From Candidatus Micrarchaeota archaeon (lineage in GTDB: Archaea > Micrarchaeota > Micrarchaeia > Burarchaeales > JAKAKT01), in NCBI GenBank assembly GCA_021813385.1, contig JAKAKT010000009.1, positions 1 to 63,363 on the forward strand: a stretch of 63,363 bases of DNA, in the 5' to 3' direction. Position 1 is the first letter of the stretch; each line of letters starts with the position of its first letter. The notes under the pieces were generated by a model. That model saw only the letters and a program-made list of their open reading frames with translations, made no database searches and had not been told where the DNA came from. Positions 7,371 to 43,933 of this stretch are shown piece by piece. The position numbers were made by a program, and so were the translations under genes.

Positions 7371-7446
7371 ATCTGATTCTGTAGTGATGGAAACGTTTAT
7401 AATTCTTATTTCAGAAATACAATTCTGAAAACCGAAAGTGATAATT

Positions 7447-8455: not shown

Positions 8456-8481
8456 CTCATCGAAACGAGCTATCTGACCAA

Positions 8482-9343: not shown

Positions 9344-9468
9344 AGACGTACCTCGAATATCTTAACCTACGCAGACTATTATAATCTTGTTGCTAGAACC
9401 ATGTCGAAAATAAGCGCTTCTTGGAAGCTTCAAGACGAGCGCCTAGGGCTCTGAACCCAGGGGGCACA

Positions 9469-9525
9469 TCCGATTTTTCTCCCAAGAGAAAAATGGACCA
9501 CAAGTGCCAGAGCACTTGTCGGTCC
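9469..9525 (+). repeat. Double-hairpin element, copy A
   Basis: TCCGATTTTT, then hairpin TTTTTCTC/CCAA/GAGAAAAA (9474-9493), then TGGAC. A 13-bp hairpin follows, GGACC-A-CAAGTGC/CAGA/GCACTTG-T[C]GGTCC (9495-9525). Collinear with copy B at 43517-43574. Confidence 0.6.
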
Positions 9526-9579
9526 CCCTAGGTTTCAAGCTCCTCCTGACCCCCTGACGACTTATCTTTGCTTGGTTCA

Positions 9580-9646
9580 ACCCCAGATTTTGCGCTGGGG
9601 CGCAAAAACCCTCACAAAGGTTCGTTCTGTTCGGTCGCCTGGGGCC
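9580..9646 (+). pseudogene. Decayed tRNA-Thr-like remnant (D-arm missing)
   Basis: Blocks collinear with tRNA-Thr 7299-7370: CCCCAG, TTTGC, GCAAAAA, GTTCG, TTCT, TCGCCTGGGGC. There is no D-arm, the anticodon loop is altered, and no valid cloverleaf can be drawn. Confidence 0.55.
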
Positions 9647-9746
9647 ATAAGCCAAGAGTCCTATTTCTCCAGACTTGCTTATTTTTAACGTATTCTGTAG
9701 TAAGCCTTAAAACCCTTAAGCATCGTTAATTTATCGGGGTCAGGGT

Positions 9747-9914
9747 ATGGAATTGAAGAGCATCAAAATTCCAAACTGGCTCGTTTTCATTCTTTGGTTA
9801 GTGGCTCTATATTTTTCCCGGGGCGCAATACAATGGGCGCTTTCGTTCTTTGGTTGGTATTTTGCTTATTGGTTTGTTTTCAAGAGGGATAAAAAAGGTA
9901 AGTGGTGGATATAA
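9747..9914 (+). CDS. Possible small membrane protein (55 aa)
   Basis: Below the track cutoff. Reads MELKSIKIPNWLVFILWLVALYFSRGAIQWALSFFGWYFAYWFVFKRDKKGKWWI, with two hydrophobic segments and a basic tail. A 10-bp hairpin at 9935-9962 and a T-run near 10003 follow it. Confidence 0.3.
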   Translation: MELKSIKIPNWLVFILWLVALYFSRGAIQWALSFFGWYFAYWFVFKRDKKGKWWI

Positions 9915-16730: not shown

Positions 16731-17312
16731 TCATGGGTAGATATTCTGGAGCGTAGTCGAATAAGATGACGGGGTAGTGCCCTCAATCACAGTAGTTGAC
16801 CCGAACTCCGGTATCAGCTCGAACCTGAATTGGGAACGGGTCGGGAAATAGACTGTTGTTGCCGGGATTATGTTTATTTGAACGAGGGAGGATCCGTCGA
16901 TTACTGGAGTCTGAGGATTGAAGAGGTTAGTCGGGTCGCGAATTTCGGTGATATTGAAGAAATTGCCGGCGGCCGCAGATGTGCGGTTATATGTTAGAGT
17001 GCTCTGGTTGAAATTATTGCCAACCCTAACAACGAGGGTGCTCAGGTCGGTCCTGCTTGCACCTGCTGCTGCCGTAACGAATATTGTAAAGTTCTCGATG
17101 TTGGTCATGCCGGAGTTGGTAGTGCCGATGATGCTGGACACAAGAAGATTGCCTGAGACCTGGGAAATCGCTTCTTTCCCGGTCTTCATCGCCTTTTGCT
17201 GGAGAATCCCAGAGACGTTTATGAGAACTGCTGCTGCAATGGCGGCGACGAGAACCATTGCGATGAATATGATAAGCGTTCCTATGCCAACCGCACCCTT
17301 CTTGTTTGTCAA
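16731..17312 (-). CDS. Archaellin/type IV pilin-like protein with class III signal peptide
   Basis: The conserved N-terminus KKGAVGIGTLIIFIAMVLVAAIAAAVLINVSGILQQKA must be near the protein start. An in-frame TTG at 17312 gives M-TNKKG|AVGIG, with a TATA (TTTTTTATACC) 30-40 nt upstream. The track ORF extension to 17588 is judged non-coding for this gene. Confidence 0.7.
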   Translation of the reverse strand: MTNKKGAVGIGTLIIFIAMVLVAAIAAAVLINVSGILQQKAMKTGKEAISQVSGNLLVSSIIGTTNSGMTNIENFTIFVTAAAGASRTDLSTLVVRVGNNFNQSTLTYNRTSAAAGNFFNITEIRDPTNLFNPQTPVIDGSSLVQINIIPATTVYFPTRSQFRFELIPEFGSTTVIEGTTPSSYSTTLQNIYP

Positions 17313-17341
17313 ATTGTCACCAGGAATAATGTATATGGCTA

Positions 17342-17371
17342 GGTATAAAAAAGATTCAGTAGTATATATAC
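17342..17371. promoter_or_regulatory. Probable bidirectional TATA region
   Basis: GGTATAAAAAAG and GTATATATAC lie between the pilin start (17312, minus) and the small plus-strand ORF start (17385). Confidence 0.35.
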
Positions 17372-17384
17372 GTTGGGATTTGTT

Positions 17385-17597
17385 ATGGGTGAGGCGATAA
17401 GTGCAATTGGCAAGCTCGTTATAAGCATAATCGCTGCCGCCATAATAGCCGGGAGCGTCTACAACTCGTTCAACCTTTTCGGGCTCAACCGTTACTTGAA
17501 TTTCCCTTACTCGGTGGAAATCTGCGCTGGTTCGCTTGGGCTGCTTGTTTTGGTTATCGTTTACGCGCTTATGATGAGGCTCAAGCACCAGCTATAG
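17385..17597 (+). CDS. Possible small two-TM membrane protein (70 aa)
   Basis: ATG at 17385 within track ORF 17373..17597. Two hydrophobic helices (AISAIGKLVISIIAAAIIAGSVY and AGSLGLLVLVIVYALMM). Competes with the antisense pilin ORF extension. Confidence 0.35.
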   Translation: MGEAISAIGKLVISIIAAAIIAGSVYNSFNLFGLNRYLNFPYSVEICAGSLGLLVLVIVYALMMRLKHQL

Positions 17598-23600: not shown

Positions 23601-26600
23601 TGCCGGTGTTGTTCACTGAATCGTTAACGTAGACTCGGTAAGCGTAAGAGCCGTTAGACAGCCCAGTCATGTTGCGGTACCAATTTGTCGAAGAGCCCTG
23701 GGTCATTGCGTAATAAGTGCCGTTCCAATCAACTATGGCTGAAACTGTCTCTTCATTTGTTGTGACATTCACATAAACCCAGGATTGGGAGAGGTTTGTG
23801 TTGTTTGCTGGGGTCAGGGGTACGAATGTGACGACTGGGGCAGTATTGTCGATTCTGATTGTGACATATTCGGTTGCATTCGTGTTTGAATAAAGGTCGG
23901 TTGCGTTGATAGTCACATTGTAGTAGCCATCAGACAGGGCAGTTGTAATGAATGTTGCGTTGAAGCTTGTTGCAGTTGTGTTGCTCATTTGGATCCAAGG
24001 AGTTACGTTTCCTGTTGTGTTTGAGAGCCAGTAGTAGACTTTGGAGGCGTCGGGATTAGCATCAGTAACCGTCGCGTTAATCAGAGTTGGGCCACTCACG
24101 TTCTGGTTCGCTGAAGGGGCGGTTATTGTGACGCTGGGGGGCAAATTATCGCCCGCATAAAGAGTCAGGTTAACTGTTGATGACGAGGTTATGTTCATTG
24201 AAGTTGAGTTTATTGCATAATTAGCCAGGCTTGCGTTTATCGTGTGATTAGTGTAGCTCACGTTAGTGCTGCCGTTCATCACCATTTCAGTCACGATGAC
24301 GTAATTAGTTAGGCCTCCCGGATTAGTCAAGTTGTCCGTCATATTTGAAAAGCCAAGGATGTCCGAAATGTTTACGATTGCGTTCTGGAGCGGGGAGCCG
24401 GCTGAGTTCGTGACATTTACGCGGGCGTACCATTGGATTGTGAGATTGTTGATGTCAGTTGTGCCTATAACGACATTCGAGATGTTGAATGTCATGTTCA
24501 GGAATATGTTGTCGTAAACACTCGGGAGGCCGAAATCAGGGCCAACCGCGTAAAAGTTAGTGGCCGAACCATTCGTGATTGTTGAGTTTGCGAAGATTGC
24601 CCGGGTAACTGCACCGAAGTTTGCATCGAGATAAACGGAAGTCGCAGCAGTCGTGATGGTGTTGTTAGTAAGAGCCGTGTCAGTAACAGAGCGTGCAAGA
24701 TACATGCCGAAAGCGCTGCCCCCAGTGGTGGTTATCGTGTTCGAATACACTGAAGTGTTGTACATGTTCCTGTAAACGTATGCGCCATAGCCGGATGAGC
24801 TTAGGATTGTGTTCAGGTAAGCGGAGTTGTTGCTGCCTGTAGTGGAAAAAGTTATGCCCGTTCCTCCTCCGGATGCGTTTATGTTGTTCGAATAGAGCGA
24901 GTTGTTGTAAATCACTGTCACGGCGAATATTCCGCCTCCTGATGAGTTTGCTGTAAGGTTGTTAGAGTAGACTGAAGAGGAATTTGTCCTTGTGAGATAG
25001 ATTGCTGACGCGGTGGTTCCATTTGTTACGACTTTATTCGAGTAGATGTTGTGGAAGCCGCCAATGCTCGCGTAAATCCCGTAGCTCGAGGAGCCATAGG
25101 TGTAGATTGTGTTGTTTTCAACTGTGTTGTTGTCGGCCCCGGTTTGTATCGCGATGGCATAGCTGCTGCTTGTGCTGACATTCCCCTCTGAGAAAATGCA
25201 GTTCTTTATGGTGACATTATCGTAGCCTGTATTGTTTACCCCATATCTTCCATTTACCGAGCCAGTGTCGTATGTGACAATGTGCCCGTTGCAGTCGAGG
25301 AATACATTGTGGGCGGTTATGTTGAAGCATGTTCCAGATGAAGTCACATCGCTGACGAGGGTGGTATTTGCACTTACTTGGCTGCAAATTGTTCCAGGCA
25401 TTTGGTATAGCGTGAGGTTGGTTGTAGAGGTCGAGGTAATGTTTGCTGACGTGGTGTTGATGAGATAGCCCGTAAGGGTCGCGTTAATTGTCTGATTGTT
25501 CAAAGCGAAGTTCCCGGAACTTGAATAGTTTGTGTCGTTCACCACAACGAACCCGGTCAACCCGTTCGAGTTCGTCAGGTTAACGACCATCGCAGGCATC
25601 CCGTTGATGTCCGATATGTTGACAAGCGCGTTCTGCAAAGCAGTACCTGACGAACTGGTAACATTCACGCGCATAAACCACTGGACGAGGAAATCATCTG
25701 TGCCTGCCCAGGAAACGTTCGAGTAGTTCGCAGTCGTGTTCAGGAAAATGTTGTTCACGGAATTAGTCATGGACCGGATAACGTCTGTTGTAACCGAGGA
25801 GTGATGGATTATTGAGTCCGTGAAGTTTGTGTTGTTCGAGTTCTGCATGTATATCCCATAGATTGCGCGGTCCGAGGTGATGTTGTAGAGCCTGTTTGAG
25901 CGAGAGTTCAGCGAATAAATTCCATAACTAGTGCTGTTGATGGAGATATTCTGGAGTAGGTTCCAGTTAGTACTCGAAAACCGCAACCCATAGGTCGCGT
26001 TCTGAATTTTACCATTCTGGAAAGTATTGTTTTCCGGCGGGGGGTCGAGATCTGATTGAAGAGCGTAAAGGGCAGAAGTCGTCCCATTGCCCCTTGTTAT
26101 ATTGAAGTTTGTGACGTTGGTGCCAGAGGAAAGGGATTCGAGGTATATGCCCGTGCCATTGTAGTCATCAACAGAAAGACCCGTTATATTCACCGGGCAG
26201 TTTATCCGGAAGCCTATGTTGCTCACGTTTACGTCAATATTCTGGAAAGACAAGTTTGCAGCGCATGGGTAGACCGTATGAATTCCATATCCGTTTGACA
26301 TGTTCTTTAAGCTCACCTTGGACACTGAAGAGTTTGAGACGTATGTGAAGTAGAGTCCGTAGCCGCGGTAGACATACGTGTCGCCCCCTTGCAGGTAAGC
26401 GCGCCGTCCCGAGCCAAGAAACACCGACGTCTCATCCAGGTAAGCGCCATAGTGGCGGATGTCTTGCTCCAGGGCATTGCTGGAAATCGCCCCGATGCTC
26501 TCGCCTATTGCTTCGGACAGCGTGTAGTGGCGTGACTCATGGTCGTTTCCTGCCGGGTTGACGATGGTGGTGACCAAGGTTCCTGAATGGTTCCTCCCGC

Positions 26601-29600
26601 TGTAGTTGCTTATCAAGAGGCTATCCACTGTATTCGCGTAGATGCCGTAGGCGAAGCCGCCTTTGTCTGCGAATTGCCCGGTTGGCACGGAAGTCACTAT
26701 GTTCCAGTCTGTGTGGTTCGTAATGTTGACGAGACTGCAGCTTATCAGGTTGATTCCGATTGCATTGCTATAGATGGAGCTGCTGCCGTACCCGCAGTCA
26801 TGAATCGTGTTGTTCAGGAAAGAGAGGTTCTGGGAGTTTTGTGCCCATATGCTATTGATGAACTGGGTGATTATGCAGTTCTTTATTGTGATGTTCGATC
26901 TCCCGGACATGTAAACGGCATAAGCGTTGAGGGACGTGGTACCAGTTATTGTGTGGCCGCTGCAGTCTAAGAAAATGTTGTCTGCGGCCATCGTGAAGCA
27001 GGTAGAGCCGGTCTGCGCAGTCACATCGCTGCTTAATGTGGTGTTGTGGTAAACGCTCTTGCAGTCAGTTGTTGGGATAGTCAGATTCACTTGCGTCATT
27101 CCGGTAATGTTGTAAACAGTGAGATTGGATGACCCGTCTGCCCATGAGGCGTAGAACGTGTGGTTGTTGTAATTGAATGACTGGACTGAGTTCTGGGTCT
27201 CTTCGGTAATGGAGTAATAGGCAGTCGGATTGGGGGTCGATGAACCGGAATAGATTGTGCGGCCGTTTGTTTCGTTGATTTGGAACGAGCCGCCAGCTCC
27301 CAACTGGTCTCCGAATTTATCTGTGAAATTGATCCGGACAGGCCAGGCGAAGCTCAGGTTCCCGGACAAAAGTAAAATATTGTTCCTGTTGAACGACGTG
27401 CAGTTGAAGATTATGTCATCGGTCGACACGTCGGTGTTCACTGCATCGTACGAAGTAGCGGATGCGAAGGAGGAAGTGTTGATTGTGTTCCAGTTCGAGG
27501 AAGATGCAAACTCGAGGTTGTCCACATTCCCGATAAAACTGTTGTTAAAGACATTATTTAGACTTGATGACTCGATTGTAAGCCCTGAGCCGCTCGAGTT
27601 GAGCGTGTTGTTCGAAAGAAGTGAGCTATTGGTTGAGTTAAAGTAAACGGAACGCTGGTAATCGCTTACAATGCAGTTCTTTATCGTTATGTTTTTCCTG
27701 CCCTCGGCGTATATCCCATAGCCCGCATCAGCGGAGTCGTTCCCGGTTATCCTATGGCCGGCGCAGTCAAGAGCTACGTTGTCGGCCGAGAAAGTGACAC
27801 AGGTTCCGTTCGAGGCGAGGTTTGACAGGAGTGTCGTGTTCACGCTTACCTGAAGGCATTCCGAAAGGTAAAGGCTGGCATTATATGTCTGCGATGATGT
27901 GACGTTCAGGCTTGATGAGTTGAATGCGCCTGCCTTTGAAACGTTGATTGTGTAATTGTTGAACGTGAAATTGTTGGTTGAGTTCATGTAAGTGATGTTG
28001 ATTAGGGTGAAGTTGGTAAGGCCGCTCGAATTTGTGACGCTCTGGACCATTATCTGTTTTCCATAAGCATCTGTGATATTCACTAGTGCGCCGCTGACCG
28101 GGCCTCCGAGATAGTAGGTTGCATTTACCCGCAGGTAATGCTGGAGGGTCAGGTTGTTTGTCCCGCTTCCCCAGGCGAATGTTGATGGCCCAGAGTAGCC
28201 ATATTGTGGTGGACCCCGGATTATGTTGTTCAGGGAAGTCTGGTTCGAAGTTATTTCCCTGACATAAGTACTCGCAAATGACGAGTTCTCGATAACATTC
28301 GAAGAGCTCGCGTTGAGATATATTGAATAGTTCTGGTAATCGAAAAACTCGTTGATGAACTGGTTCGAGTTCGAGGACTCGAGGATGACGTCGTAATTGT
28401 TATAAAAGAATGTCAGGTCAGAGAAGTTGTTTCCAGACGAGGAGTTCAGGTAGGCGCCGATTTGGTTAAGGTAAACTTGGCATCCACTGGTATTCAATGT
28501 GTTGTTGTGGGAATCCGAGAGGTAGGCCCCATAGAAGTTTCTCCAAGGGCAGCCGAACCCCCGGATGCTGCTCCTGTTCGTTCCTGAGAGCATTATGCCG
28601 GCGGAATAATTTATCGGGTAGCAGTCCTTTATGGTTATGTTCGTCCTCCCGGGCGCATAAATGGCGTAGGTGCCCAAAGTATGGTTCCCGACTATCCCCT
28701 TGCTTCCGCAGTCGAGCGTTATGTTGTCTGCCCCGAAAGTGAAGCAGGTGTCGTTGTAGTATATGTCCACTCCCGTGTAAAGGCTCTGCGTCAATACTCC
28801 GCAATCGTACTGGGTGAATGTGATTGTCTTGGTGCTCGTCACGTTGTTGGTTTTTGTCTGGAACTGGGAGAATGATACGTTTATCATGTGGTTGTTGAAC
28901 GAGAAGTTCTGCAGCACCGAGCCAGATTTGTTCATAATCATCTCGTTGGCTATGGCCCAGTTGGTGTAACCGTTCGAGCCCGTTAAGTTGTCAATCATCA
29001 ACTGCTTTCCGTAGGCATCCGAGATGTTAACTATTGCCCCTTGTATCGGGGAAACGTTGGTCGCATAAACGCGCAAGTACCACTGGACGGTCAGGTTGCA
29101 GGGCGAGCACGTCCCGAACCCGACCTTGCTTGTATTGAAAGTGGAATTGAGAATTGTGTTGTTCTGGGAGCTCCCGTCTAGATAGATGTCGCTAGTTGAA
29201 GTCTGGGAGATTGTTGAGTTCGACATGTTGTAATCGGTCGTGCTCGCGCCTGTGAGATAAACCCCGTAGCCGTTCCCATAGGCGAGCCCGGTGCTCCCGG
29301 GGTTGCCACGAGTCGAGTTCGTGAGAGTAGATGTCTTGATAACCCCGTACCTGCCCGCGGCGGTGACGACGTAGCTCGTTCCCCCAATCCCGGCAGTACT
29401 CGAACATGCCGTTGGATCTCCCCCGTTCCCAGCGGTGAAGTACGAGAGGGTCGCGTTCTCAATGGTTGCGTTTGCATTTGTTGCGCTTACATTGAATCCG
29501 AAGGAATCTCCCCCTGCCCCTCCTGTTCCGCTACCAATGTCACCGCAGTCCCCAGCAGTCCCTCCTGACCCACCAGTTACGTTGTTTATCGAACCGGTGA

Positions 29601-32600
29601 ATATGTTGTTCGCCGAGCGCAGATAGACTCCGCCCCCGGCTCCGCCGTTGCCTCCGTTGGCGTTGGTGTTGACCGAGGGAGTCGTCCCTCCGTTCCCCCC
29701 TGTTCCGCCAAAGACCTGGGAGATGCTCATCAGGAGCATCGAATTGTTCGCTGAGCCGCTGTCAGTTATGTAGATTGCGTAGGTTAATCCTCCGGCGCTC
29801 CCGTTCCCTCCGTATTTGAGTCCGGTCGCATTGCCGCCGTCCCCTCCGTTCCCGCCCGTCAGTCTTGTGAGCGTGTCGCTTGTGAATGTGGTGTTCAAGG
29901 AGTTGCTAATCAGATAAATCCCGTAAATACTCCCACCCACTCCGCCGTTGCAACCATTGCTGCTCGCTCCAGACCCGTTCCCGCCGGTCCCGCCTTTCCC
30001 GCCCGAAAGGTTTGAAATCGCATTGCTCGCAATCGAATTGTTTTTCGAGTTCGTGAGGCTGATTCCGTACAGCGAGTACCCGTCTCCCCCATTAGTGCAG
30101 GAAGCGCCATTGTTCCCACCGGTTCCAGCGACTCCGCTCGTGTTATAAATCGTGTTGCTGGTTATGAAACTGTTATTCGTGCCGGTGAAGAGGATGGCGG
30201 TCGTGTAGTTGCTTATGAGGCAGTTCTTTACTGTTATGTTATTCCTACCGCTCGCGAGAACCCCGTAGGCATTGGCCTGGGTGCCGGTTATCGTGTAGCC
30301 AGCGCAGTCCAAGGTGATGTTGTCCGCCCCGATTGTCATGCAGGTACTCGTAGTCGAAGCGATGCTGTTTGTGAGCGTCGTGTCTGAGTATATTGTAGCG
30401 CAACCGGAGTATAAGGAAAAGTTCAGCGTTAATGTGCCCGTGATATTGATATTTGTCGTATTGAAGAGAGACGAACTGCTCACGTTGATTGTGTGGTTGT
30501 TGAATGTGAAGTTTTGGCTCGGCCCCATATACATCTCAGTGACTGTTGCCCAGTTCGTGAGGCCATCGGAGCCGGTTAGGTTGTTCGCAATTACTTGCTT
30601 CCCATAGATATCTGAGATGTTCACGAGCGCGTTTTGGACGGGCGAGCCTGACGGGCCGGTAACGTTTACCCTCACATACCACTGGAGAGTTAGGTTGCTG
30701 GTCGCATCCAGGGTCACTTGTGATTTGTTGAAAGTCATGTTGAGGAATATGATGTTGTAGGCATTGTAAGAAACAAGGTTAAGCGCCGAGCCGTTTGTTA
30801 TCGTTGAGTTCTCGAAGCTGTTGTTGCGGATATACCCCGTGCTTCCATCGAAATACAGCGAAGCTGCCGCTGTTGTTATGGTGTTGTTCCAGAACCTGTT
30901 GTCGTATATGATCTGTTTCAGATGTATCCCATAAGCACTGCTTCCGGTTGTAGTTATGGAATTTGAATAAACCAAGCTGTTTGAAACTCCAATCCAGAGA
31001 TAAAGGCCGTCACTGCTTGAACTGTTTGTAGTGATGTTGTTGAAGGAAATCGCCGTGTTGTTGACTCCGCCGCTAGCTAAGTAAACACCAATGCTTGAAG
31101 TGCCGTTCGTGGAGATTCTGTTCGAGGTTATGTTATTGTTGGGTGAGGTCGAAGCAACATAAACGCCTTCGCTGCCTGATCCATAAGTGGTGATTGTGTT
31201 GTTTATCACGCTGTTATTGTTCGCATTGGTGAAGAAGACCCCGTGCTTGCTGCTTGTGCTTGTGTTTCCATCGATTAGGACGCAGTTTTGAACAGTCGTG
31301 CGGTTGTAGCCGGTATTGTTGACGCCGTACCTGGCATTGTTCGGGCCTGTCCCGTAGGTTATTGAAAATCCGTTGCAGTCAAGCGTGATATCATTCGCCA
31401 ATATCGTGAAGCAGGTATCGTTTGAGTTTACGTTGCTGTTCAATGTAGTGTTCGAGGTTAGGTTTCCGCAGATTGAGGGGGTTAGGGATACTTCGGCGTA
31501 TGAAGACACGTTGTAGGTCGAGTCCGAGCAGGTGAAGTTCGCGCCCCAGGTGTCATACCAGCTCAAGTTGCCCGATGAGATATTCGACGGATTCATGCTA
31601 ACATTCGAGCTGATTGTATTATTGCCCTGGAAATAGGGGGAAATTGTAAGATTATCGAACTCGTAGAAGAGCGCCTGCGCGTTGCTTGCGTCATCGAGAA
31701 GGAAGCCGATTGTGAACATGCTGTTCGCAATGTTTTGGTTCATGAACGATGCGTTCGTTGCGCTCCAGGCGTTCCAGGTGGTGGCGGGGATGTAGTTGGT
31801 CTTGTTGCTCAGGGAATTTGTCGTATTGCCGGCGCCACAGTTGGTGGTCTGGGAGAGGTTGTGGCAAGGAGTGACGTTGCCTGCCCAAATGTACGCAGTT
31901 ACATTGAGCGCCTGGGAGGTGTGATATCCTCTCCACCACCAGGAAATGTTGTAGGTCCCGGAGGAAAGCGGGAGTTTGAATGCCCGGTAAGCCCACAAGC
32001 TCCCTTGCCCGGTGTTGTCAGTGCGGGCGTGGAAATCCGGGGAAGGAACCCCGTCGCTTGAGTTCTGAGAGACAATCCATCCGCTTCCTGGGTCCGATGC
32101 GGTATACCTGTCCTCGGAGATCCCATACCAGCCATTCGTGCAGTTCGTGCAGAACGAGTTGCTCGGCGAGCAGGATGACCAGGAAGCGCATGTCCAGTTG
32201 CCATCAAACAGGTTTCGGAGGTTCCATAGGTAAGAAAGGTTCAGCGTCGGATTGTCCGGGTCGTTGCAGGTTACGTTCAGTTTGAGGGTGTCTGAAGTTA
32301 TTGGGGAAGTTGGGGTGATTCGCGTCTCTACGACTGTCGGAGTGAGGTTGAGGTTGTGGGTGATTTCCAGGTACGGGCCGTTCGCCAATCCGCACACATC
32401 GAAACCGCGTTCGTAGTCAGGGTCAAGGATGGATCCAATATCGAGGGAATTTTTATAAGCGGCACCGACTACTGGGTAGTAGTCTGGATGGTTTATCCTG
32501 ATTGTGAGGTTCTTCTCGCCTGCCCCGTATGCCGCCTTGGTGATGTTCGTGACGTTGATGCACATGTAGCCGCCTGGCGCGTCATAAAAACTGTAGGCAG

Positions 32601-34374
32601 TCGTAACGTTGTCATAAACCATTGCTTGATATTGTGAACCGGTTAATGACCAGGTAGTGGTCCAGCTTTGGTTCGTTATATGGGAGACGTTCGCCCTGTA
32701 GTCGAGAAGAGCAGGAAAGGTGTTGGGGTGAAGGCACAACGTGGAGTTCTGTATCGTTTCCCCGCTTGCAAGATTCGAAATGTCCCACTTGATTTGGATT
32801 TCTATAGGCCAGGACCCAGCATTTTGATAACCATACAGGTGAATTAGGCAGTAAGTATCCGTGAACTGCGTCGTCGGGTCTATTTCAATCGGGTAAACCG
32901 AGCGCATCAGCCATGAGAGCGGGACTGAAGTTGCGTAAAACGTCCTGCCGTTCCCCTGGAAAATCCCTGCCGGCATTGCCTTCGTGTCCGGGTATGGGAT
33001 TTCCCTCCCGTCAATAAGGGCTTTCGAGGAGTCCAAAGCGAGCGAAGGGAGGAAGGAATAGGCTTTCGAGCCGGACGAATCGAGGAAATCTATTTTTGAA
33101 AGAGTTTCCTCCCCGTTGGGAAGAGCAACCCCGTTTGCTGTGGGCGTTAAGCCATCGATGTCGACTTCAGACAAGAAATATATCGGGGTATCCTGGGGCA
33201 GGCCCAAGCCGGCAACAAGGGACCTGAACTCATCAGTTAATGTTATCGTTTCCTTGAACCTTCCGCTCTCGTAATCATATCTTATGTCGGTCCCTGTGAA
33301 TACTGTCGGGTATGTGACTGAGTTCTCATTCGGGATTCCAATTGAGGATGAAGAAATCTGTATATACGAGAGCCCGCCCCAGGAAGGGTCCTTGTATGCT
33401 ATTGCGAAAGGCTTCATCCCGAGCTTCTTGCCTCCCTTCTCTGCGAGCACAGGCCAAGCTGAACTGGCATCAGGTTTGAAATACGCTTTATAGGCTCCTT
33501 TCTCAACACCAGTCCGGTAGTCGCTGGAATAAAGCGGGTTGTCTTCGGGAAGTTCCACAATCGAGAGGTTGATTGGCGAGTATTCGGACCCGTTCCAATA
33601 GTCGGAAGAGGTCCCGTAGAAAGTATCTGTGTCGCTGTTGCCTTCGATTAATCTCCCATGGGCTTCTCCTACCGGAGTCACCTCTTTCTTCGCCCTTGCC
33701 GCATTTACTGTTTCTTTGGCAGGGCAAATGCTTGCATAGCGGCCCTTTACGCTCGTAACACCAAAAGGCGAGTAGAATGATGCATTCCAGGTCCCATTTG
33801 TGCAGGGAGTGACGTTATAGCGGAGGAGGAACGCCCTCTTTGCGCCCTCCTTGAAGGAGAAATGGGATTCGTCGACAGGAATCCATCTGTAGTAATCAAC
33901 TTCCTCTTCTGAGCCGTCCGCCTTCTTCTTCGCCTCATGACCGAAAAACGTCGATTGCCAGAGGGTTGCTTCCCGCGGGGCTTCAGAAAAACCAAGGGTA
34001 AAGTAAACCTTGAAGTCATTTATCTCGCCCGCAAGGTTCTCGAGGTTGAACTGGGATTCGCACTTCCCATCCTTGGAGCACAGGGCCAGTTTTTCATTGG
34101 AGGCAAAGAAACCGCTCTCCTTCTGCAGTTTCTTTGCTTCTGAGGTGTGGCTCGGGCTTATTTCCGGTCTCGCCTTCGGAAGCTCGGAGTATTTCGAGAT
34201 GTCGAGCTTGTGCCCTATGACCTGCGCATCTTTCAGGCTCGCCTTGAATTCAGCTGGAGCCCCCGCGTCAACCCCCACTTGGGCGGGGAGAGCGAGGAGT
34301 AATAGTAGGGAAAACGCTAAGCCTAACGGGAGAATTGCTATTATCCCACGTGAAACTGAATGCTTTTTTTGCAT
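17611..34374 (-). CDS. Giant (5,587 aa) modular, membrane-anchored surface protein, putative glycosylated adhesin
   Basis: Uninterrupted 16,764-nt ORF with an N-terminal signal-like hydrophobic segment. Six parallel-beta-helix-like modules are followed by about nine tandem Ig-like units, PKD/cadherin-like units, a Cys-rich region and about four further Ig-like domains. One C-terminal TM (about 17806-17860) precedes a K/E/R-rich tail. N-x-S/T sequons occur throughout. Confidence 0.9.
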   Translation of the reverse strand: MQKKHSVSRGIIAILPLGLAFSLLLLLALPAQVGVDAGAPAEFKASLKDAQVIGHKLDISKYSELPKARPEISPSHTSEAKKLQKESGFFASNEKLALCSKDGKCESQFNLENLAGEINDFKVYFTLGFSEAPREATLWQSTFFGHEAKKKADGSEEEVDYYRWIPVDESHFSFKEGAKRAFLLRYNVTPCTNGTWNASFYSPFGVTSVKGRYASICPAKETVNAARAKKEVTPVGEAHGRLIEGNSDTDTFYGTSSDYWNGSEYSPINLSIVELPEDNPLYSSDYRTGVEKGAYKAYFKPDASSAWPVLAEKGGKKLGMKPFAIAYKDPSWGGLSYIQISSSSIGIPNENSVTYPTVFTGTDIRYDYESGRFKETITLTDEFRSLVAGLGLPQDTPIYFLSEVDIDGLTPTANGVALPNGEETLSKIDFLDSSGSKAYSFLPSLALDSSKALIDGREIPYPDTKAMPAGIFQGNGRTFYATSVPLSWLMRSVYPIEIDPTTQFTDTYCLIHLYGYQNAGSWPIEIQIKWDISNLASGETIQNSTLCLHPNTFPALLDYRANVSHITNQSWTTTWSLTGSQYQAMVYDNVTTAYSFYDAPGGYMCINVTNITKAAYGAGEKNLTIRINHPDYYPVVGAAYKNSLDIGSILDPDYERGFDVCGLANGPYLEITHNLNLTPTVVETRITPTSPITSDTLKLNVTCNDPDNPTLNLSYLWNLRNLFDGNWTCASWSSCSPSNSFCTNCTNGWYGISEDRYTASDPGSGWIVSQNSSDGVPSPDFHARTDNTGQGSLWAYRAFKLPLSSGTYNISWWWRGYHTSQALNVTAYIWAGNVTPCHNLSQTTNCGAGNTTNSLSNKTNYIPATTWNAWSATNASFMNQNIANSMFTIGFLLDDASNAQALFYEFDNLTISPYFQGNNTISSNVSMNPSNISSGNLSWYDTWGANFTCSDSTYNVSSYAEVSLTPSICGNLTSNTTLNSNVNSNDTCFTILANDITLDCNGFSITYGTGPNNARYGVNNTGYNRTTVQNCVLIDGNTSTSSKHGVFFTNANNNSVINNTITTYGSGSEGVYVASTSPNNNITSNRISTNGTSSIGVYLASGGVNNTAISFNNITTNSSSSDGLYLWIGVSNSLVYSNSITTTGSSAYGIHLKQIIYDNRFWNNTITTAAASLYFDGSTGYIRNNSFENSTITNGSALNLVSYNAYNIIFLNMTFNKSQVTLDATSNLTLQWYVRVNVTGPSGSPVQNALVNISDIYGKQVIANNLTGSDGLTNWATVTEMYMGPSQNFTFNNHTINVSSSSLFNTTNINITGTLTLNFSLYSGCATIYSDTTLTNSIASTTSTCMTIGADNITLDCAGYTITGTQANAYGVLASGRNNITVKNCLISNYTTAILFTGTNNSFITSNTIYNTSGVAGTGGNNGASCTNGGDGYSLYGISLTNSKNNSIASNAISNLSGGKGGTGGNGSGASSNGCNGGVGGSIYGIYLISNSLNTTFTSDTLTRLTGGNGGDGGNATGLKYGGNGSAGGLTYAIYITDSGSANNSMLLMSISQVFGGTGGNGGTTPSVNTNANGGNGGAGGGVYLRSANNIFTGSINNVTGGSGGTAGDCGDIGSGTGGAGGDSFGFNVSATNANATIENATLSYFTAGNGGDPTACSSTAGIGGTSYVVTAAGRYGVIKTSTLTNSTRGNPGSTGLAYGNGYGVYLTGASTTDYNMSNSTISQTSTSDIYLDGSSQNNTILNSTFNTSKVGFGTCSPCNLTVQWYLRVYATNVSPIQGAIVNISDAYGKQLMIDNLTGSNGYTNWAIANEMIMNKSGSVLQNFSFNNHMINVSFSQFQTKTNNVTSTKTITFTQYDCGVLTQSLYTGVDIYYNDTCFTFGADNITLDCGSKGIVGNHTLGTYAIYAPGRTNITIKDCYPINYSAGIMLSGTNRSSIRGFGCPWRNFYGAYLSDSHNNTLNTSGCQVYLNQIGAYLNSSSGNNFSDLTFFYNNYDVILESSNSNQFINEFFDYQNYSIYLNASSSNVIENSSFASTYVREITSNQTSLNNIIRGPPQYGYSGPSTFAWGSGTNNLTLQHYLRVNATYYLGGPVSGALVNITDAYGKQIMVQSVTNSSGLTNFTLINITYMNSTNNFTFNNYTINVSKAGAFNSSSLNVTSSQTYNASLYLSECLQVSVNTTLLSNLASNGTCVTFSADNVALDCAGHRITGNDSADAGYGIYAEGRKNITIKNCIVSDYQRSVYFNSTNSSLLSNNTLNSSGSGLTIESSSLNNVFNNSFIGNVDNLEFASSSNWNTINTSSFASATSYDAVNTDVSTDDIIFNCTSFNRNNILLLSGNLSFAWPVRINFTDKFGDQLGAGGSFQINETNGRTIYSGSSTPNPTAYYSITEETQNSVQSFNYNNHTFYASWADGSSNLTVYNITGMTQVNLTIPTTDCKSVYHNTTLSSDVTAQTGSTCFTMAADNIFLDCSGHTITGTTSLNAYAVYMSGRSNITIKNCIITQFINSIWAQNSQNLSFLNNTIHDCGYGSSSIYSNAIGINLISCSLVNITNHTDWNIVTSVPTGQFADKGGFAYGIYANTVDSLLISNYSGRNHSGTLVTTIVNPAGNDHESRHYTLSEAIGESIGAISSNALEQDIRHYGAYLDETSVFLGSGRRAYLQGGDTYVYRGYGLYFTYVSNSSVSKVSLKNMSNGYGIHTVYPCAANLSFQNIDVNVSNIGFRINCPVNITGLSVDDYNGTGIYLESLSSGTNVTNFNITRGNGTTSALYALQSDLDPPPENNTFQNGKIQNATYGLRFSSTNWNLLQNISINSTSYGIYSLNSRSNRLYNITSDRAIYGIYMQNSNNTNFTDSIIHHSSVTTDVIRSMTNSVNNIFLNTTANYSNVSWAGTDDFLVQWFMRVNVTSSSGTALQNALVNISDINGMPAMVVNLTNSNGLTGFVVVNDTNYSSSGNFALNNQTINATLTGYLINTTSANITSTSTTNLTLYQMPGTICSQVSANTTLVSDVTSSGTCFNITAHNVFLDCNGHIVTYDTGSVNGRYGVNNTGYDNVTIKNCIFSEGNVSTSSSYAIAIQTGADNNTVENNTIYTYGSSSYGIYASIGGFHNIYSNKVVTNGTTASAIYLTRTNSSSVYSNNLTANSSGGGIFAVTVIYNNSLYSNNINASGGGTGITFSTTGSNNSAYLNTILSSSGYGAYVYRNMYNTSVYSNTITTTGGSAFGMYLARSVTDTALTNNTITTAATSVYLDANFGAVTRAIFANSTITNGSATNFYAVGPDFGLPSVYDNIFLNMTFNISNVVIGTTDINNLTIQWYARVNVTNSAGSPLQNAIVNISDILGFSNMTDNLTNPGGLTNYVIVTEMVMNGSTNVSYTNHTINASLANYAINSTSMNITSSSTVNLTLYAGDNLPPSVTITAPSANQNVSGPTLINATVTDANPDASKVYYWLSNTTGNVTPWIQMSNTTATSFNATFITTALSDGYYNVTINATDLYSNTNATEYVTIRIDNTAPVVTFVPLTPANNTNLSQSWVYVNVTTNEETVSAIVDWNGTYYAMTQGSSTNWYRNMTGLSNGSYAYRVYVNDSVNNTGSTGTMNVTIDTSAPAITFVTPTPPNDSNLSQNWAYINITSNEPIISAVINWNGTFYSLTQSSSTNWFRNMTVLGNGTYTYNVSANDTINNTGISETRNLTIDTVSPVITFVTPTPPNNSNLSQNWAYVNITTSEYAVSVLINWNGTWYQFSQLNPTSWYRNMTSLSEGTYDYYVQANDSANNTGTSSTQNLTIDTTQPALTLVSPTHNNESVNYAWSYVNLSSNENLANATLNWNGTDYPMGGSGINWYLNRTGLGDGNYSFFANASDFASNTNTTETRWVLIDTIGPIITFVSMTPGPDSTTSRDWVFVNVTTNERVDNASVYWNGTSYYLLNSSPTNWYFNITGLANGTYVYNVSANDTLGNNGTSLTQNVTVDTSAPMLTFVFPTNNDEFINYNWSYVNMTSDKALDNATLNWNGTDYSMQNTSSIEWYLNMSNLADGNYSFQARGNDSLNNLGYSETRWVLVDTVNPIPTFVYPTPSDNANLSTNWAYINVSANERIISALLDWNGTFYSMSQLNSTVWYRNMTSLGDGICSYTAHVNDSANNSGNIGPRTVRIDTITPTVSFVPPTPSNNSNQVSNSVFLNVSISEAAISCLVQNSSGFYAMSQLNSTVWYATMAPLSYSTNHSFTVYCNDTVNNTGSSGPLWVTVDIAPSVSNTQICANDTCSPVPISRGSSLNCSANVTDDFNSSIDVYFKWFVNGSYSSGYDSIRYAVPNATFAYAASPIPAAAVNKSDTWGCEARPYDGLQFGSALNSSTVTVNNTAPSIGAPSINNTSPINTSTISCDNGTFSDADGDQPGMGYWRWFWNGSVLGGQTSQSLSLLAIGAQATDQIICEHMSEDSGYDPKNSTRQNSTTVTLTTSSAPIPNNATLCKGTACLPIGSAIYLNDSLNCSANITDAENSTILQVNFTFYRNSTAYSVVSLDNVPNASISYPNSFPPGALRKSDTWICEVSAYDGEYSSNRINGSVAATVNNTAPWVTAPSINDTSPYTDSVLLCNNGSFSDADNDSEGSRVWGWFLNGTVIPGQISQTLDLSQAGAGNRGDTINCSQDSSDTGWDSKYSLENISTSVTIINTPPSTAVSISPSPAAQGSDVTCSALATDADGDSINFTYIWWNGVTQVATTFTNSTTFLLAGANTTNGETWTCQVTPFDGFANGTATNASVNIQAAPAGCPPNCPHPTPSLSASISGNCVNQTSTITISSDSGPVPGVSIKILRQGVLWQIVETGFTDAAGRYVFTPNETGQYEVQASLFGYNPTTARFTIGYCGTCGICDGTCPGPSCYGSDPDCDPLGLAIGGNACPGGGLCCGGSCKSVCTSQKDCSDGDTCTIDSCSGSNCSAICAHAPITSCLSKDGCCPAGCTSLNDSDCSPTCSPTCKGDVPGKSCQQYACVLGDCIESLKPDCCGNSICEPSAGESNTNCPTDCLLSCGNGFCDAQENKCNCPSDCGSCSGKCAGDCTQFKCTPDGCSCTTIPNCCGNGACEKPENFFTCSTDCPPEFLSLRIYSPSFGQDFLRGDRMHLAVKVFAEFVPAANAIVSASGFFGKVILYDDGMHGDGAPGDGLYGAYVDISSWVPYGPQAISFDARVGDSNGKRSSVILITNNLALNMVLDTPTLELGDTVFISGNVSGGSDDTEHEVLLDLSAYDSDISKQSKRTKGDFDFAYRTSFLDSAGNWIATITVIDDDNNTRMVSKLIAVEEPVPEKFLSVEYLSPVPGAYLKGQDVPITIKVTDAGNPITGAQAKAYGPKHKAFPLEEVGDGVYSSTYKISLDDPSGIWELQSRVYKTENGVLHGGAASTVVAITDVPIKLVITEPAKQDYSIGETLPINVLASYSEEKPADNIVLLVRLKDRSITARQVERGVYGSSLELDPGLQGANTMIIFARDPYENYGIAQVPLKVQGYSPWYYIKLYWIPIIAILLVALSVSAYYLQLVRKREKLRKLLEQKQEIVEKQRRVQSDYFVERSMDRGSFDQLSQKYDEELRKVEREMERLK
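21655..24150 (-). repeat. Tandem array of about nine ~92-95-aa Ig-like units inside the giant ORF
   Basis: Recurrent unit boundary (I/V)D(T/N)xxPxx(T/S)FVxPTPxNxSNLSQxW.Y(V/I)N(V/I)T...WNGT.Y...W(Y/F)(R/L)NM(T/S).L..G.Y.Y. Boundaries seen near 23850, 23570, 23290, 23010, 22740, 22460, 22190 and 21910. Coordinates are approximate. Confidence 0.7.
24150..31490 (-). repeat. Six large beta-helix modules (about 260-560 aa each) inside the giant ORF
   Basis: Each module opens with C-x-T-x-x-A-D/H-N-(I/V)-x-L-D-C-x-G-x-x-I-T and N-(I/V)-T-(I/V)-K-N-C. Each closes with NLT(L/V/I)QW(Y/F).RVN(V/A)T...(A)(L/I)VNI(S/T)D..G. Module starts lie near 31480, 30395, 28800, 27850, 27060 and 25385 (approximate). 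Confidence 0.65.
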
Positions 34375-41860: not shown

Positions 41861-43219
41861 CTATTTCTTTGTGTGGATGAGCATCCCCTCAGGCCTCCTG
41901 AAGAGATTCCCGCTCCTGACACCAATCAGCATCGCCGTACCCTTGCTCTCGGCAAGGTCAACAAGCCTCTGGGTGATTATTCCATCGAAGACGACCGCGT
42001 GAATCCCGGGGGATTCCCCGAGCGTCTTGATGAGGTCCCGGACCGGAATCTCGTTCACCTGCTCGTTGTTTGGGCCGTAGAGCCTTGCCCTGAGGGTATT
42101 CTCGAGCTCGTCAAGGCTCTTCAGCAGCCCTTCAGGTGCCTGGGCAGCTGATGCAGAAGGGGAGGCTGTCTCAACGGGCGCGCTTGCCTGCTGGCCTTGT
42201 GCCTCAGAACGCTCGAACATCGGCTGTATCGATTCGGCTGGGGATTCCACAGGTTCCTTCCCCTCGCTAATGTCCTCTTCCCTCCTGGATTCAAAAGGCC
42301 TGCGCGTCCTCGCGAACCTCGACCTGTCTTCTTGCGCCTGCCTCGGCCTGTCGTCGGCGAGCTGCTCAAGCGGGAGCGCTGCCTGCCTTGGCTTCCCTCC
42401 GTTTATCTGCTCGAAAGGAACACGGCTTCTTATCGCCTTTATTATCTCCTTCCTTGAGAGTTCCTCCACTTCCCTTCCTGGAGGCGCCCTAGCTACGAAA
42501 TCGATTTCAGTCTGCTGGGAGAGCTCCTTGAGGATTATGTCCCCGCCCCTGTCCCCATCGAGGAAGACAGTCACTTCTTTCTCCCTGCATAGGCCGATGA
42601 CGGTCTTGGGAACATTCGCCCCTCCGATAGCAACCGCATTGTTTATGTCGTTCTTGAGCAGGTTTAGCACATCCGCCCTGCCTTCGACTATCACAATCGC
42701 ATCGGAAGTCCTTATGCCCGGACCAGCAGGCAGCTTCTCGGGGCCATAGCTCTCTATTTCAGCAATCTTGACCTCTTGCCTCACGAGTTCCGAAATCTCC
42801 TTGCTTTCAGGAATCTCGTTGGTGAGAAGAATCTTTAAGAGTCTCTTCGCCCTGTCGATGACTGCTTTCCTCTTCACGTTCCTCGTGTCCTCTATTTTCT
42901 CGACGTTTATCTTCGCGTCGCACGGCCCGACCCTGTCGACCGCCTCGAGCGCAGCTGCGAGAATGCTCGTCTCGACCATGTCGAGGCTCGAGGGAAGGAG
43001 AATCCTCCCCACGCTCTTGCCCCCCTTGCCCTGAAGCTCGACCTCGATTCTCCCGATTCTCCCGTTCTTCTGGAGCTCGCGCAAATCAAGCTCGTCCCCA
43101 AGAAGCCCTTCGGTCTGGCCGAATATCGCGCCAACAACGTCGGGCTTTTCTACGAGCCCGCCTATCTCTAGGTTCGCGTAAACCAAATATTTCACTGTGT
43201 CAATGTATGTCTTTCCCAT
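41861..43219 (-). CDS. dnaG: Archaeal DnaG primase (Toprim)
   Basis: The canonical archaeal DnaG N-terminus MGKTYIDTVKYLVYANLEIGGLVEKPDVVGAIFGQTEGLL starts at ATG 43219, preceded by GGTGA (43225-43229). Toprim motifs IVIVEGRADV and FLDGDRGGD. The ORF stays open upstream to 43600. Confidence 0.85.
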   Translation of the reverse strand: MGKTYIDTVKYLVYANLEIGGLVEKPDVVGAIFGQTEGLLGDELDLRELQKNGRIGRIEVELQGKGGKSVGRILLPSSLDMVETSILAAALEAVDRVGPCDAKINVEKIEDTRNVKRKAVIDRAKRLLKILLTNEIPESKEISELVRQEVKIAEIESYGPEKLPAGPGIRTSDAIVIVEGRADVLNLLKNDINNAVAIGGANVPKTVIGLCREKEVTVFLDGDRGGDIILKELSQQTEIDFVARAPPGREVEELSRKEIIKAIRSRVPFEQINGGKPRQAALPLEQLADDRPRQAQEDRSRFARTRRPFESRREEDISEGKEPVESPAESIQPMFERSEAQGQQASAPVETASPSASAAQAPEGLLKSLDELENTLRARLYGPNNEQVNEIPVRDLIKTLGESPGIHAVVFDGIITQRLVDLAESKGTAMLIGVRSGNLFRRPEGMLIHTKK

Positions 43220-43728
43220 AGTTTTCACCTTAATTGTTCGGTTTCCCTTATGTTCCCCGAATCTTTTGTCAAATTCCTGGAAATTCGAAAGGCCCAGGGC
43301 ATAACGAAACTTTCTCCTGCAATCGACGTTCGGGCGCACCCCGCATGCGCGGAGCGTTTCAGAGAGCCGTTCAAGCAGCTCCTCCCCCGCACAATCGAAA
43401 TCAGTGAGTATTATCGCCTCGTTCTCGCCAGCGAGCCTTTCGCAGGCTTCCCTTGGCCTTCCATTCACAGGAATTATCCTTTTTATCATTGTATTGGAAT
43501 TTGCTAATTCCAATGCGGACACAGTCATTTTCTCGGGAAAATGACGTCCATTTTTGCCTCGGGCAAAAATCGGAAATTTCCGTTGAAATTTGTCCTGCAC
43601 CTTTCCAAGGACTCCTTGTCCCTCTTTCCCTCAACTATAACCGGCTTTCCCGGCATCTCCTCGAGCGCCCGAAGAAGGGCTTTACGCCTCGCGACAAGCT
43701 TTCGTTCGCCTGCTGAACTCATCCTCAT
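43220..43728 (-). pseudogene. Small Toprim-domain gene split across two frames by a hairpin-dense segment; its 3' part reads into dnaG
   Basis: Frame A (43728..43525) encodes the Toprim Glu motif PVIVEGKRDKESLER. Frame B (from 43489) encodes IIPVNGRP...AIILTDFDCAGEEL (DxD motif). About 105-110 nt of stacked hairpins separate them. There is no stop before the dnaG ATG. Confidence 0.5.
43517..43574 (-). repeat. Double-hairpin element, copy B (inside the Toprim interruption)
   Basis: Minus-sense TCCGATTTTT, then hairpin ATTTTTGCC/CGA/GGCAAAAAT, then TGGAC. Hairpin GTCATTTTC/CCGA/GAAAATGAC follows, then TGT-GTCC. Collinear with copy A. Confidence 0.6.
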
Positions 43729-43933
43729 TTAGGTCCACCTCCAGGACCTTTTTCCTTGAGGTTAAGCCGCGAACAACCCTTATCCCGCACCCGAGCAGCT
43801 TTTTCATCTCGCGCTCAAGTTCGAGGTTCGCCTTCCCTTTTTCTGGTCTGGAAACCACACGGGCTTTCCATCCATCCTTATAGCGAAACCCGAACTTTTT
43901 CGAGTTGGGGGATACCTTTACCTCGAGCAACAC
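43682..43933 (-). CDS. DUF167/YggU-family protein
   Basis: 83 aa. Pattern VKVSPNSKK....RVVSRPEKGKAN.EL...........V.VVRGLTSRKKVLEV is typical of UPF0235/DUF167. Confidence 0.7.
   Translation of the reverse strand: MLLEVKVSPNSKKFGFRYKDGWKARVVSRPEKGKANLELEREMKKLLGCGIRVVRGLTSRKKVLEVDLNEDEFSRRTKACREA

Follow-up and report, generated by a model that had tools for sequence, protein, structure and literature searches.

The 63-kb stretch of DNA analysed here (63,363 nucleotides of contig JAKAKT010000009.1 from a Candidatus Micrarchaeota archaeon, hereafter called the window) contains a hairpin-dense segment within a small Toprim gene that adjoins dnaG, the gene of the archaeal primase. This segment is very likely an inserted small mobile element that is composed solely of hairpins and disrupts the gene. 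All coordinates are those of the window, except where an L number, which denotes a compared sequence, precedes them. The element and the Toprim and dnaG genes are all located on the minus strand, and slashes between sequence blocks mark insertion points or hairpin loops.

Judged by its sequence, the host gene is a small Toprim gene of the COG1658/PRK04017-like type. A preceding sequence-only reading of the window had placed the two Toprim halves in different reading frames, which is confirmed: the joined halves score 23.6 bits against the Pfam Toprim model (cut-off 23.1), and the PRK04017 "small Toprim" models match them collinearly across the junction, with scores below the model cut-offs. 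E33 and the motif D73-F-D75 are invariant in the alignment with the orthologues. With the conserved Glu and DxD motifs, a length of about 130 residues, and dnaG adjoining, the gene has the features of a small Toprim gene. When the joined sequence was used to query 5.8 billion proteins, 15 relatives were recovered; the top ones are uninterrupted, comprise 132–133 residues, and share 87% and ~60% identity. The question raised beforehand, whether orthologues carry the spacer or are themselves split, is answered in the opposite sense, as each of the seven closest orthologues is one continuous gene (132–148 residues). All relatives examined share the order DUF167–small Toprim–dnaG–Mg-chelatase-like ATPase; its first three members were seen in L001, L003, L012, L014, and L015. 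Within the window, there is no second intact Toprim copy.

The closest orthologue runs without a gap over the junction (KESLESC-MIKRIIPVNG). In the DNA alignment with L001/L002, whose protein is 87% identical, the window has only one extra block, which measures exactly 107 nt (43490–43596) and lies between the native Cys codon TGC (43597–43599) and the native ATG (43487–43489). The intact site reads ...GAAAGTTGT/ATGATAAAA in L001/L002 and ...GAAAGGTGC(107 nt)ATGATAAAA in the window, where the element is flanked by AAAGGTGC/ and /ATGATAAAA; the minus-strand text of the region is ...GGAAAGGTGC AGGACAAATTTCAACGGAAATTTCCGATTTTTGCCCGAGGCAAAAATGGACGTCATTTTCCCGAGAAAATGACTGTGTCCGCATTGGAATTAGCAAATTCCAATACA ATGATAAAAAGG.... 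The 110 extra nucleotides and the join KESLER/MIKRII proposed from the sequence alone are thus to be corrected to 107 nt and KESLERC/MIKRII, the Cys being native. Neither a target duplication, apart from a 1-nt ambiguity, nor terminal inverted repeats emerge when the filled site is compared with the empty one: the end AGGACAAATT... is not an inverted repeat of ...TCCAATACA, and each end forms its own hairpin. The insert length, 107, is not a multiple of three, and the Toprim frame meets a TGA at 43525–43527, inside hairpin C. A second lesion, the loss of 2 nt close to the 3' end of Toprim, removes the native TGA from the frame and fuses the C-terminal half to dnaG, giving rise to the 555-residue "DnaG" gene calls and a 579-residue open reading frame (ORF). 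The predicted peptide texts at the joins are ERC-RTNF..., MTVSALELANSNTMIK..., and, at the junction of the Toprim C-terminal half with DnaG, ...GNRTIKVKTMGK....

The dense hairpins noted at the outset are all in the sequence, and their structure exceeds chance by far. Hairpins B (ATTTTTGCC/CGA/GGCAAAAAT, 43550–43570) and C (GTCATTTTC/CCGA/GAAAATGAC, 43524–43545) are perfect over 9 bp each, and the 12-nt palindrome CGGAAATTTCCG (43571–43582) as well as the GGACA/TGTCC helix are found. The third stem, previously given as 8 bp at 43494–43513, exists as a hairpin, but its size and limits change to a perfect 9 bp at 43493–43514 (hairpin D, ATTGGAATT/AGCA/AATTCCAAT). Likewise, the pairing of what had been described as a closing helix stands, yet it is not a separate feature but the outer part of an 11-bp hairpin A that is split by a 53-nt module. 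Once these 53 nt (43521–43573: CCG, hairpin B, GGAC, hairpin C, and TGT) are deleted, the remaining 54 nt form two perfect hairpins, one of 11 bp (GGACAAATTTC/GAAATTTGTCC) and one of 9 bp, and in the Toprim frame they provide 18 open codons (RTNFNGNLSALELANSNT) in phase with both parts of the gene. The window copy is a composite, namely an A–D unit with a second two-hairpin unit nested in its hairpin A. At both ends of the element, the hairpins begin 1–3 nt from the end. On the minus strand, a 151-nt stretch folds with −45.9 kcal/mol compared with −30.3 ± 3.9 kcal/mol for dinucleotide shuffles (z = −4.0); on the plus strand, z is −5.1. None of 200 shuffles folds as well. The segment holds 4 of the 19 perfect hairpins of at least 7 bp in the window, and clusters of adjacent hairpins occur in 0 of 20 composition-preserving shuffles. 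Its GC content is 41%, compared with 49–53% in the flanks.

The element belongs to a family whose basic unit measures 51–54 nt and consists of hairpin A (GGACAAATTTC-loop-GAAATTTGKCC), GC, hairpin D (ATTGGAATT-loop-AATTCCAAT), and ACA. The family occupies six loci in six Micrarchaeota genomes, with two intergenic sites and three copies inside genes. A covariance model, R1, was built from five copies; in a scan of ~190 kb of related sequence, it recovers all of them and no others. Across the copies, 95% of cells retain their base pairing, and compensatory changes occur. Empty sites are available for three loci: the Toprim gene (L001/L002), the dnaG/Mg-chelatase spacer (L012, L001, and the window itself), and the cytidylate kinase gene cmk (L019/P0041), in which a 91% identical Cmk protein lacks the 18 residues. 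The relatives found via cmk are Ca. Anstonellaceae and Micrarchaeota, and a protein that clusters at 90% identity or more with the CBS-domain protein of the window belongs to a Candidatus Micrarchaeota archaeon, which places the window in a DPANN Micrarchaeota genome. The window and L003 share hairpin D and the 5' arm of hairpin A with 100% identity, yet dS of dnaG between the same two genomes exceeds 1; the element is thus much younger than the genomes or moves between them. Inside the window, short-word BLAST, repeat finding, and R1 gave only the copy itself and a related B+C module at 9472–9523. Rfam returned only tRNAs, both at the gathering threshold for the whole window and at relaxed thresholds for 9300–9800 and five loci. 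DNA scans with hairpin D led to L011 in metagenome_contigs, and those with hairpin B to L005 (Micrarchaeota) and L004 (an Acutalibacteraceae bacterium) in genome_contigs; in viral_contigs, two DNA scans gave zero matches. The L004 match is an exact 21-nt hairpin B (1430–1452) in a contig of a metagenome-assembled genome (MAG) with seven perfect hairpins in 4 kb and was judged to be an unrelated chance hairpin.

Both cmk copies lie in frame and in the same phase in the Lys-rich tail of Cmk (L011, ...KNFGRNFSALELANSNT... / ...NFGRNFSALELANSNT...; P0059/L016, ...RTNFQRNLSALEYRNSNT...), and the 54-nt unit has four open frames out of six. In-frame residence therefore holds for the family, as seen in the cmk copies, but not for the 107-nt window copy with its TGA. 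The sites also suggest a preference, as judged from a small sample: the flank at the D end is A-rich in 6/6 copies (A[T].ATAAAAA / AAAAGG, with half of the sites being AT-rich spacers; examples are ACA/ATGATAAAAAGG, ACA/ATAAAAATT, ACA/ATTAAAAAGG, and ACA/AAAAGGAAAAGG), and the left flank reads AAAG.T.. in 4/6. Such a preference would explain two independent insertions into the tail of cmk, which is rich in Lys codons.

Further hairpin arrays are present in L016. Compared with L019, two of them (13897–13987 and 15649–15690) reside in frame in coding sequence; one inserts 28 residues into the PUA domain of Cbf5, and the other contributes extra residues to the tail of ribosomal protein S4. Spacers hold additional arrays at 14090–14132, 18615–18700, and 20550–20625, and several of the L016 arrays share the plan hairpin–GGAC–hairpin.

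The nested B+C module follows a plan of its own: ATTTTTnnn-loop-nnnAAAAAT, followed by GGRC(C), a hairpin, and GGYCC. A second module of this type is nested in another, G-rich hairpin of the window (GAACCCAGGGGG...CCCCCTAGGTTTC, 9453–9537), and the type is also nested twice in L005, a Micrarchaeota MAG from Lac Pavin. L012 and L014 have the G-rich host hairpin without the module, L012 representing the empty site. By sequence comparison, two interacting kinds of mini-element can be distinguished, the two-hairpin A–D unit and the two-hairpin B+C module that would land inside hairpins. A two-step history, with an in-frame 54-nt insertion followed by nesting of the 53-nt module, was initially preferred; as L014 has the homologous long form elsewhere, the 107-nt composite may as well have arrived in one step as in two.

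The proposed course of events is that an A–D element would have been mobilised in trans by a single-stranded, hairpin-recognising transposase of either the IS200/IS605 (peel-and-paste) or the REP/RAYT type. It would then have entered the Toprim coding sequence, where its 107 nt and TGA would break the gene into a 67-residue N-terminal fragment and a C-terminal fragment. That the mechanism was of the IS200/IS605 type is a tentative proposal that may well prove wrong. The window carries a TnpB gene (4266–5384, plus strand; HTH_OrfB_IS605, OrfB_IS605, and Cas12f1-like TNB domains) of the IS200/IS605 family without tnpA, and IS200/IS605 elements are reported in >65% of Micrarchaeota genomes (PMC13343696), so that a supply of transposase is plausible. 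A hairpin, CCACCCGA TTTA TCGGGTGG, is situated at the 3' end of tnpB (5362–5381).

Several observations weigh against a mobile element that disrupts the gene. The only tnpB element of the window (4266–5384) was considered as the parent insertion sequence (IS) and rejected, as its ends are unrelated to those of the hairpin element; no tnpA was seen in the DNA examined, and no transposase is linked to the element. The flanks are alike on both sides (AAAG.T.. on the left and AT.ATAAAAAGG on the right), whereas classical IS200/IS605 targeting requires only one. Copies are few, with one A–D unit in the 63-kb window and six loci in ~190 kb, part of which was chosen for carrying the element. Translated copies gave zero matches in protein databases with a concatenated 54-residue query at E values up to 10, and a HMMER scan of 1.84 billion representatives with the 38-residue window peptide likewise gave zero. 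Finally, the window lineage shows no excess of amino acid changes in Toprim: upon inspection of the alignment (A1) with outgroups, derived changes are about equally numerous on both lineages. The inactivation would accordingly be recent, or the gene is still constrained.

Short, non-coding, and multi-copy, with presence and absence at orthologous sites (six loci, three empty sites), the family has the general traits of MITEs, the miniature transposable elements with inverted repeats. Since it has neither terminal inverted repeats nor target duplications, it is not a MITE in the strict sense but a non-autonomous, PATE/REP/RPE-like element. From the earlier proposal of a MITE-type insertion that killed the gene, the disrupting insertion is hence retained, based on the empty sites and the family, and the strict MITE label is dropped.

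A close resemblance in plan is found in the palindrome-associated transposable elements (PATEs) of Haloquadratum walsbyi, which include 52-bp "terminal-only" forms and derive from IS200/IS605-type transposons (PMC3119063). Like these, the elements described here measure ~52–54 bp, have two palindromes near their two ends and no terminal inverted repeats, create no target duplication, are too short for a transposase, and seem to insert with a short sequence preference; IS200/IS605 elements are common in the host phylum and tnpB is present in the window. They differ in that their sequences showed no link to full-length IS ends (the tnpB element of the window being compared), that both flanks look conserved, that the hairpins lie 1–3 nt from the ends, that mobilisation by TnpA is inferred, and that the host is a DPANN archaeon instead of a haloarchaeon. 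The small mobile repeats SMR-A of Haloquadratum insert into the near-terminal palindromes of PATEs and are ~110 bp long with inverted terminal repeats (PMC3119063). The 52–53-nt B+C module is comparable in being located inside the arm or loop of other hairpins without target duplication; it is half as large and is built from two hairpins in tandem, with GGAC between them. The RPEs of Rickettsia are palindromic repeats of ~100–150 bp that are inserted in frame in protein genes and kept in the ORF (PMC10969869). Similarly, two cmk genes carry the 54-nt form (18 codons) in frame, and other arrays are in frame in the Cbf5 and S4 genes of L016. However, RPEs are bacterial and unrelated in sequence, the window copy is 107 nt long and breaks the frame, and translation of the archaeal copies is predicted only. 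The short hairpin units, which occur singly or as mosaics and are presumably recognised as single-stranded DNA hairpins, are also reminiscent of REP/BIME sequences. REPs, BIMEs, and REPINs are mobilised by RAYT transposases, are extragenic, and have a conserved GTAG-type tetranucleotide; by contrast, the family at hand is found inside genes as well, and no RAYT gene was found, although no search aimed at one was made.

With the insertion in place, the Toprim gene is probably a non-functional pseudogene. This is the most economical reading because two independent frame-changing lesions occur within a 400-bp gene while its neighbours are intact. The ratio dN/dS of Toprim is 0.26–0.37 between the window and L001, compared with 0.07 for dnaG and 0.13–0.14 for intact Toprim between L001 and L003. 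These values speak against a long-dead gene, but with so few substitutions dN/dS cannot date the inactivation. To judge from its sequence, dnaG should be unaffected, keeping its own ribosome-binding site and start codon. It seems unlikely that the interrupted Toprim is alive, with hairpin elements tolerated by translation, by restart at an ATGA (yielding a two-piece Toprim with its C-terminal half on DnaG), or by bypass at the level of the RNA or the ribosome. If it were, the family would be the archaeal counterpart of the Rickettsia RPEs or of the mitochondrial "byp" elements in core genes (cmk, cbf5, S4, and the dnaG neighbour).

One form of survival is a split but living gene, in which two polypeptides are made by termination-reinitiation at the ATGA, the C-terminal half becomes an N-terminal extension of DnaG, and the fragments reassemble the Toprim fold. 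The overlap of the TGA of the 67-residue ORF with the ATG of the 555-residue ORF, Toprim codons without accelerated decay, an identical arrangement in four clean assemblies, and a break at a position that tolerates insertions and deletions among orthologues all fit this notion, and a lone C-terminal ORF of alanyl-tRNA synthetase (AlaRS) in the window hints at split genes in the genome. The ATGA, however, is part of the GAAAATGAC arm of hairpin C and may have arisen by chance, all the more as the long form in L014 has none; the C-terminal fragment is not preceded by a ribosome-binding site, whereas dnaG has a strong one; each fragment would bear 13–23 foreign residues at the break; and the fusion to DnaG through a 2-nt deletion resembles decay. 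Taken together, a functional split gene is improbable. The idea that the insert is removed from the RNA like an intron fares worse and is very improbable. Archaeal protein genes, for example cbf5 of Crenarchaeota, contain introns marked by a bulge-helix-bulge (BHB) motif with two 3-nt bulges and a 4-bp helix in between, and the three-unit splicing endonuclease of Micrarchaeota accepts relaxed BHB substrates. A broad-specificity endonuclease of this ARMAN/Micrarchaeota type could act on the short and highly structured insert, and its removal restores the exact orthologous junction and frame (...ERC/MIK...). Yet no BHB is formed at either register allowed by the orthologues, the central helix having only 2/4 and 1/4 pairs, in agreement with the earlier remark that the junctions lack a strict BHB. 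After an explicit scan of the region, a BHB intron was rejected: other candidates would remove conserved codons, and weak ones are abundant throughout the scanned region. Moreover, the same element occurs in spacers and antisense to neighbouring genes; the 54-nt copies inside genes keep the frame open, as expected of translation and needless for splicing; and the spliced protein would still run into DnaG through the 2-nt deletion. The intron-like candidate is therefore not supported.

Recoding would leave the RNA intact and let the ribosome pass the insert, either by a −1 frameshift at A_AAT_TTC, which would add 36 residues, or by hopping between two matching ACA codons, one at each end of the element (43591–43593 and 43490–43492). 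Indeed, no stop codon interrupts the insert in the −1 frame, the one used by the Toprim C-terminal half, and two 0-frame heptamers of the X_XXY_YYZ type (A_AAT_TTC, 43585–43591 and 43573–43579) have hairpins downstream. These heptamers are, however, simply the two arms of hairpin A; their spacing to hairpin B is 14 or 2 nt instead of the usual 5–9 nt; no orthologue has such a site, the orthologues being without the insert; a hop of ~100 nt would have double the length of the longest known hop and would start from a take-off codon that is not followed by a stop codon; and 36 open codons arise by chance about once in ten at this composition. Recoding is accordingly regarded as extremely improbable, and the regulatory or recoding structure suggested by the sequence-only reading finds no support, since both the heptamers and the ATGA look like by-products of palindromes. 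Equally remote is a dispersed, non-mobile small structured RNA gene or regulatory hairpin array, such as terminators. Base pairing in 95% of cells with compensatory changes and the position of some copies directly after genes would agree with it, but covariation is expected to the same degree of DNA hairpins recognised by a transposase, Rfam gives no match, copies are sense in coding regions and antisense in spacers, and presence or absence at orthologous sites is the signature of insertion.

Four identical contigs from as many samples rule out an assembly artefact. The neighbouring DUF167 protein, looked up by exact sequence, gave 10 contigs, and the five listed (L006–L010) all carry gene calls of 83, 67, and 555 residues; they originate from five samples and comprise two NCBI MAGs, two ENA assemblies, and one Logan assembly. 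Four of these five (the two NCBI MAGs, one ENA assembly, and the Logan assembly) match the window with 100% identity throughout the region. The fifth, L010 (ERZ27237538), is 99.8–99.9% identical to the window in the DUF167–Toprim–dnaG core, whereas its Mg-chelatase end sides with the L001-type strain (99.3% identity, compared with only 89% to the window). L010 is hence an assembly chimera or a natural recombinant of the interrupted and intact lineages and not independent evidence; the interrupted and the intact, L001-type lineage co-occur in the same study. The 452-residue DnaG gave no exact match because gene callers record the 555-residue fusion.

For annotation, this means that the 67-residue and 555-residue genes in several public Micrarchaeota MAGs reflect one insertion and one 2-nt deletion and are neither a new small protein nor a new long DnaG. 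The interrupted Toprim, fixed in one species and intact in a sister species from the same sample, amounts to a clean natural knockout of a gene that is conserved next to dnaG and has no known function. A single copy breaking a single small gene is nothing unusual, whereas the family behind it is moderately interesting: very small two-hairpin elements (51–54 nt) and nesting 52–53-nt modules reside in spacers and housekeeping genes of a DPANN lineage with tiny genomes. In the literature searched, elements of this kind are undescribed for Micrarchaeota, so that they constitute a new family of an already known kind. With no inverted repeats, no duplications, and an apparently strong site preference, they offer a compact natural system for studying how hairpin-only elements move, and they prompt one to ask how much foreign peptide is tolerated by core proteins. 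The features of the region and the family copies are compiled in Table 1.

Table 1. Features of the interrupted Toprim region and copies of the hairpin element family
Feature	Position	Strand	Basis
107-nt composite hairpin element, long form	43490..43596	-	Exact alignment gap compared with L001/L002; 47 bits with covariance model R1
Hairpin A, first part: 5' arm GGACAAATTTC, loop AACG, first 7 nt of 3' arm (GAAATTT)	43574..43595	-	Homologous to hairpin A of L003, L011, L012, L016
Nested 53-nt module, hairpins B and C, in 3' arm of hairpin A	43521..43573	-	Absent from short copies; removal restores hairpin A
GTCC, last 4 nt of hairpin A 3' arm; also closes hairpin C with GGAC	43517..43520	-	Fold comparison
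Hairpin D, followed by ACA (43490-43492) at element end	43493..43514	-	22/22 nt identical in L003 and L011, whose host genes are very different
N-terminal 44 codons of small Toprim (MRMSS...KESLERC), with conserved Glu	43597..43728	-	Orthologue alignment
67-residue ORF as called by gene finders: 44 native and 23 element-encoded codons, ending at TGA in hairpin C	43525..43728	-	Called in L006-L010
C-terminal half of small Toprim (MIKRIIPVNG...DFD...), one frame off the N-terminal half	43253..43489	-	Orthologue alignment
2-nt deletion site compared with L001/L002/L003	43251..43252	-	DNA alignment, columns 513-514
ATGA overlap (4 nt) of the stop of the 67-residue ORF with the ATG of the 555-residue ORF	43525..43528	-	Called genes and sequence
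dnaG, archaeal primase, 452 residues; own GGTGA ribosome-binding site 7 nt upstream; ATG at 43219	41861..43219	-	Domain match and sequence
DUF167 gene, upstream	43682..43933	-	Domain match, conserved order
Second B+C-type two-hairpin module, nested in hairpin GAACCCAGGGGG...CCCCCTAGGTTTC (9453-9537)	9472..9523	+	Hairpin search and comparison
Family copy, 54 nt, dnaG/Mg-chelatase spacer: AGGACAAATTTC CGCA GAAATTTGGCC GC ATTGGAATT AGCA AATTCCAAT ACA	L003:7786-7839		R1
Family copy, 104-nt long form, same dnaG/Mg-chelatase spacer site; homologous to window copy through all four hairpins	L014:11883-11986
Family copy, 54 nt, 3' tail of cmk	L011:554-607
Family copy, 54 nt, tail of another cmk at a position different from L011; region also represented by L017, L018	L016:10559-10612
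Family copy, 51 nt, spacer; same first hairpin, different second hairpin	L012:5888-5938

The second B+C module of the window is carried by a conserved unit of ~100 nt (GAACCNAGGGGG-loop-CCCCCTAGGTTTCA...TCCTCCTGACCCCCT; 9453–9556, extending to 9650), which is also found after ftsZ in L005. In L012 and L014, this unit directly follows a tRNA and precedes a repeat of the 3' end of that tRNA, and in the window it is followed by an 11-nt copy of the 3' end of tRNA-Thr (TCGCCTGGGGC, ~9636–9646). The stretch 7371–9650 may be the remnant of an integrated element bounded by att-like repeats. The tRNA of L012 (10257–10448) and L014 (13455–13760) is located downstream of the Mg-chelatase-like gene; at 99 nt, it is detected by Rfam and not by ARAGORN and probably has an intron. 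A second copy of its 3' end (TTCGATTCACCGCGGGCCCA) occurs ~65–130 nt further on.

Two further ORFs of the window, both on the minus strand, deserve mention. A single ORF of 5587 residues (17611–34374) with many diverged internal repeats (periods of ~276, 800–950, and 1600 nt) lies downstream of an archaeal flagellin/archaellin-like gene (16731–17588) and probably encodes a giant surface protein. The lone AlaRS ORF (403 residues, 1541–2752) comprises only C-terminal parts of the enzyme (end of the class II core, SAD, and DHHA1) and adjoins a gene for a CCA-adding enzyme; it may be part of a split AlaRS, as in other DPANN archaea.

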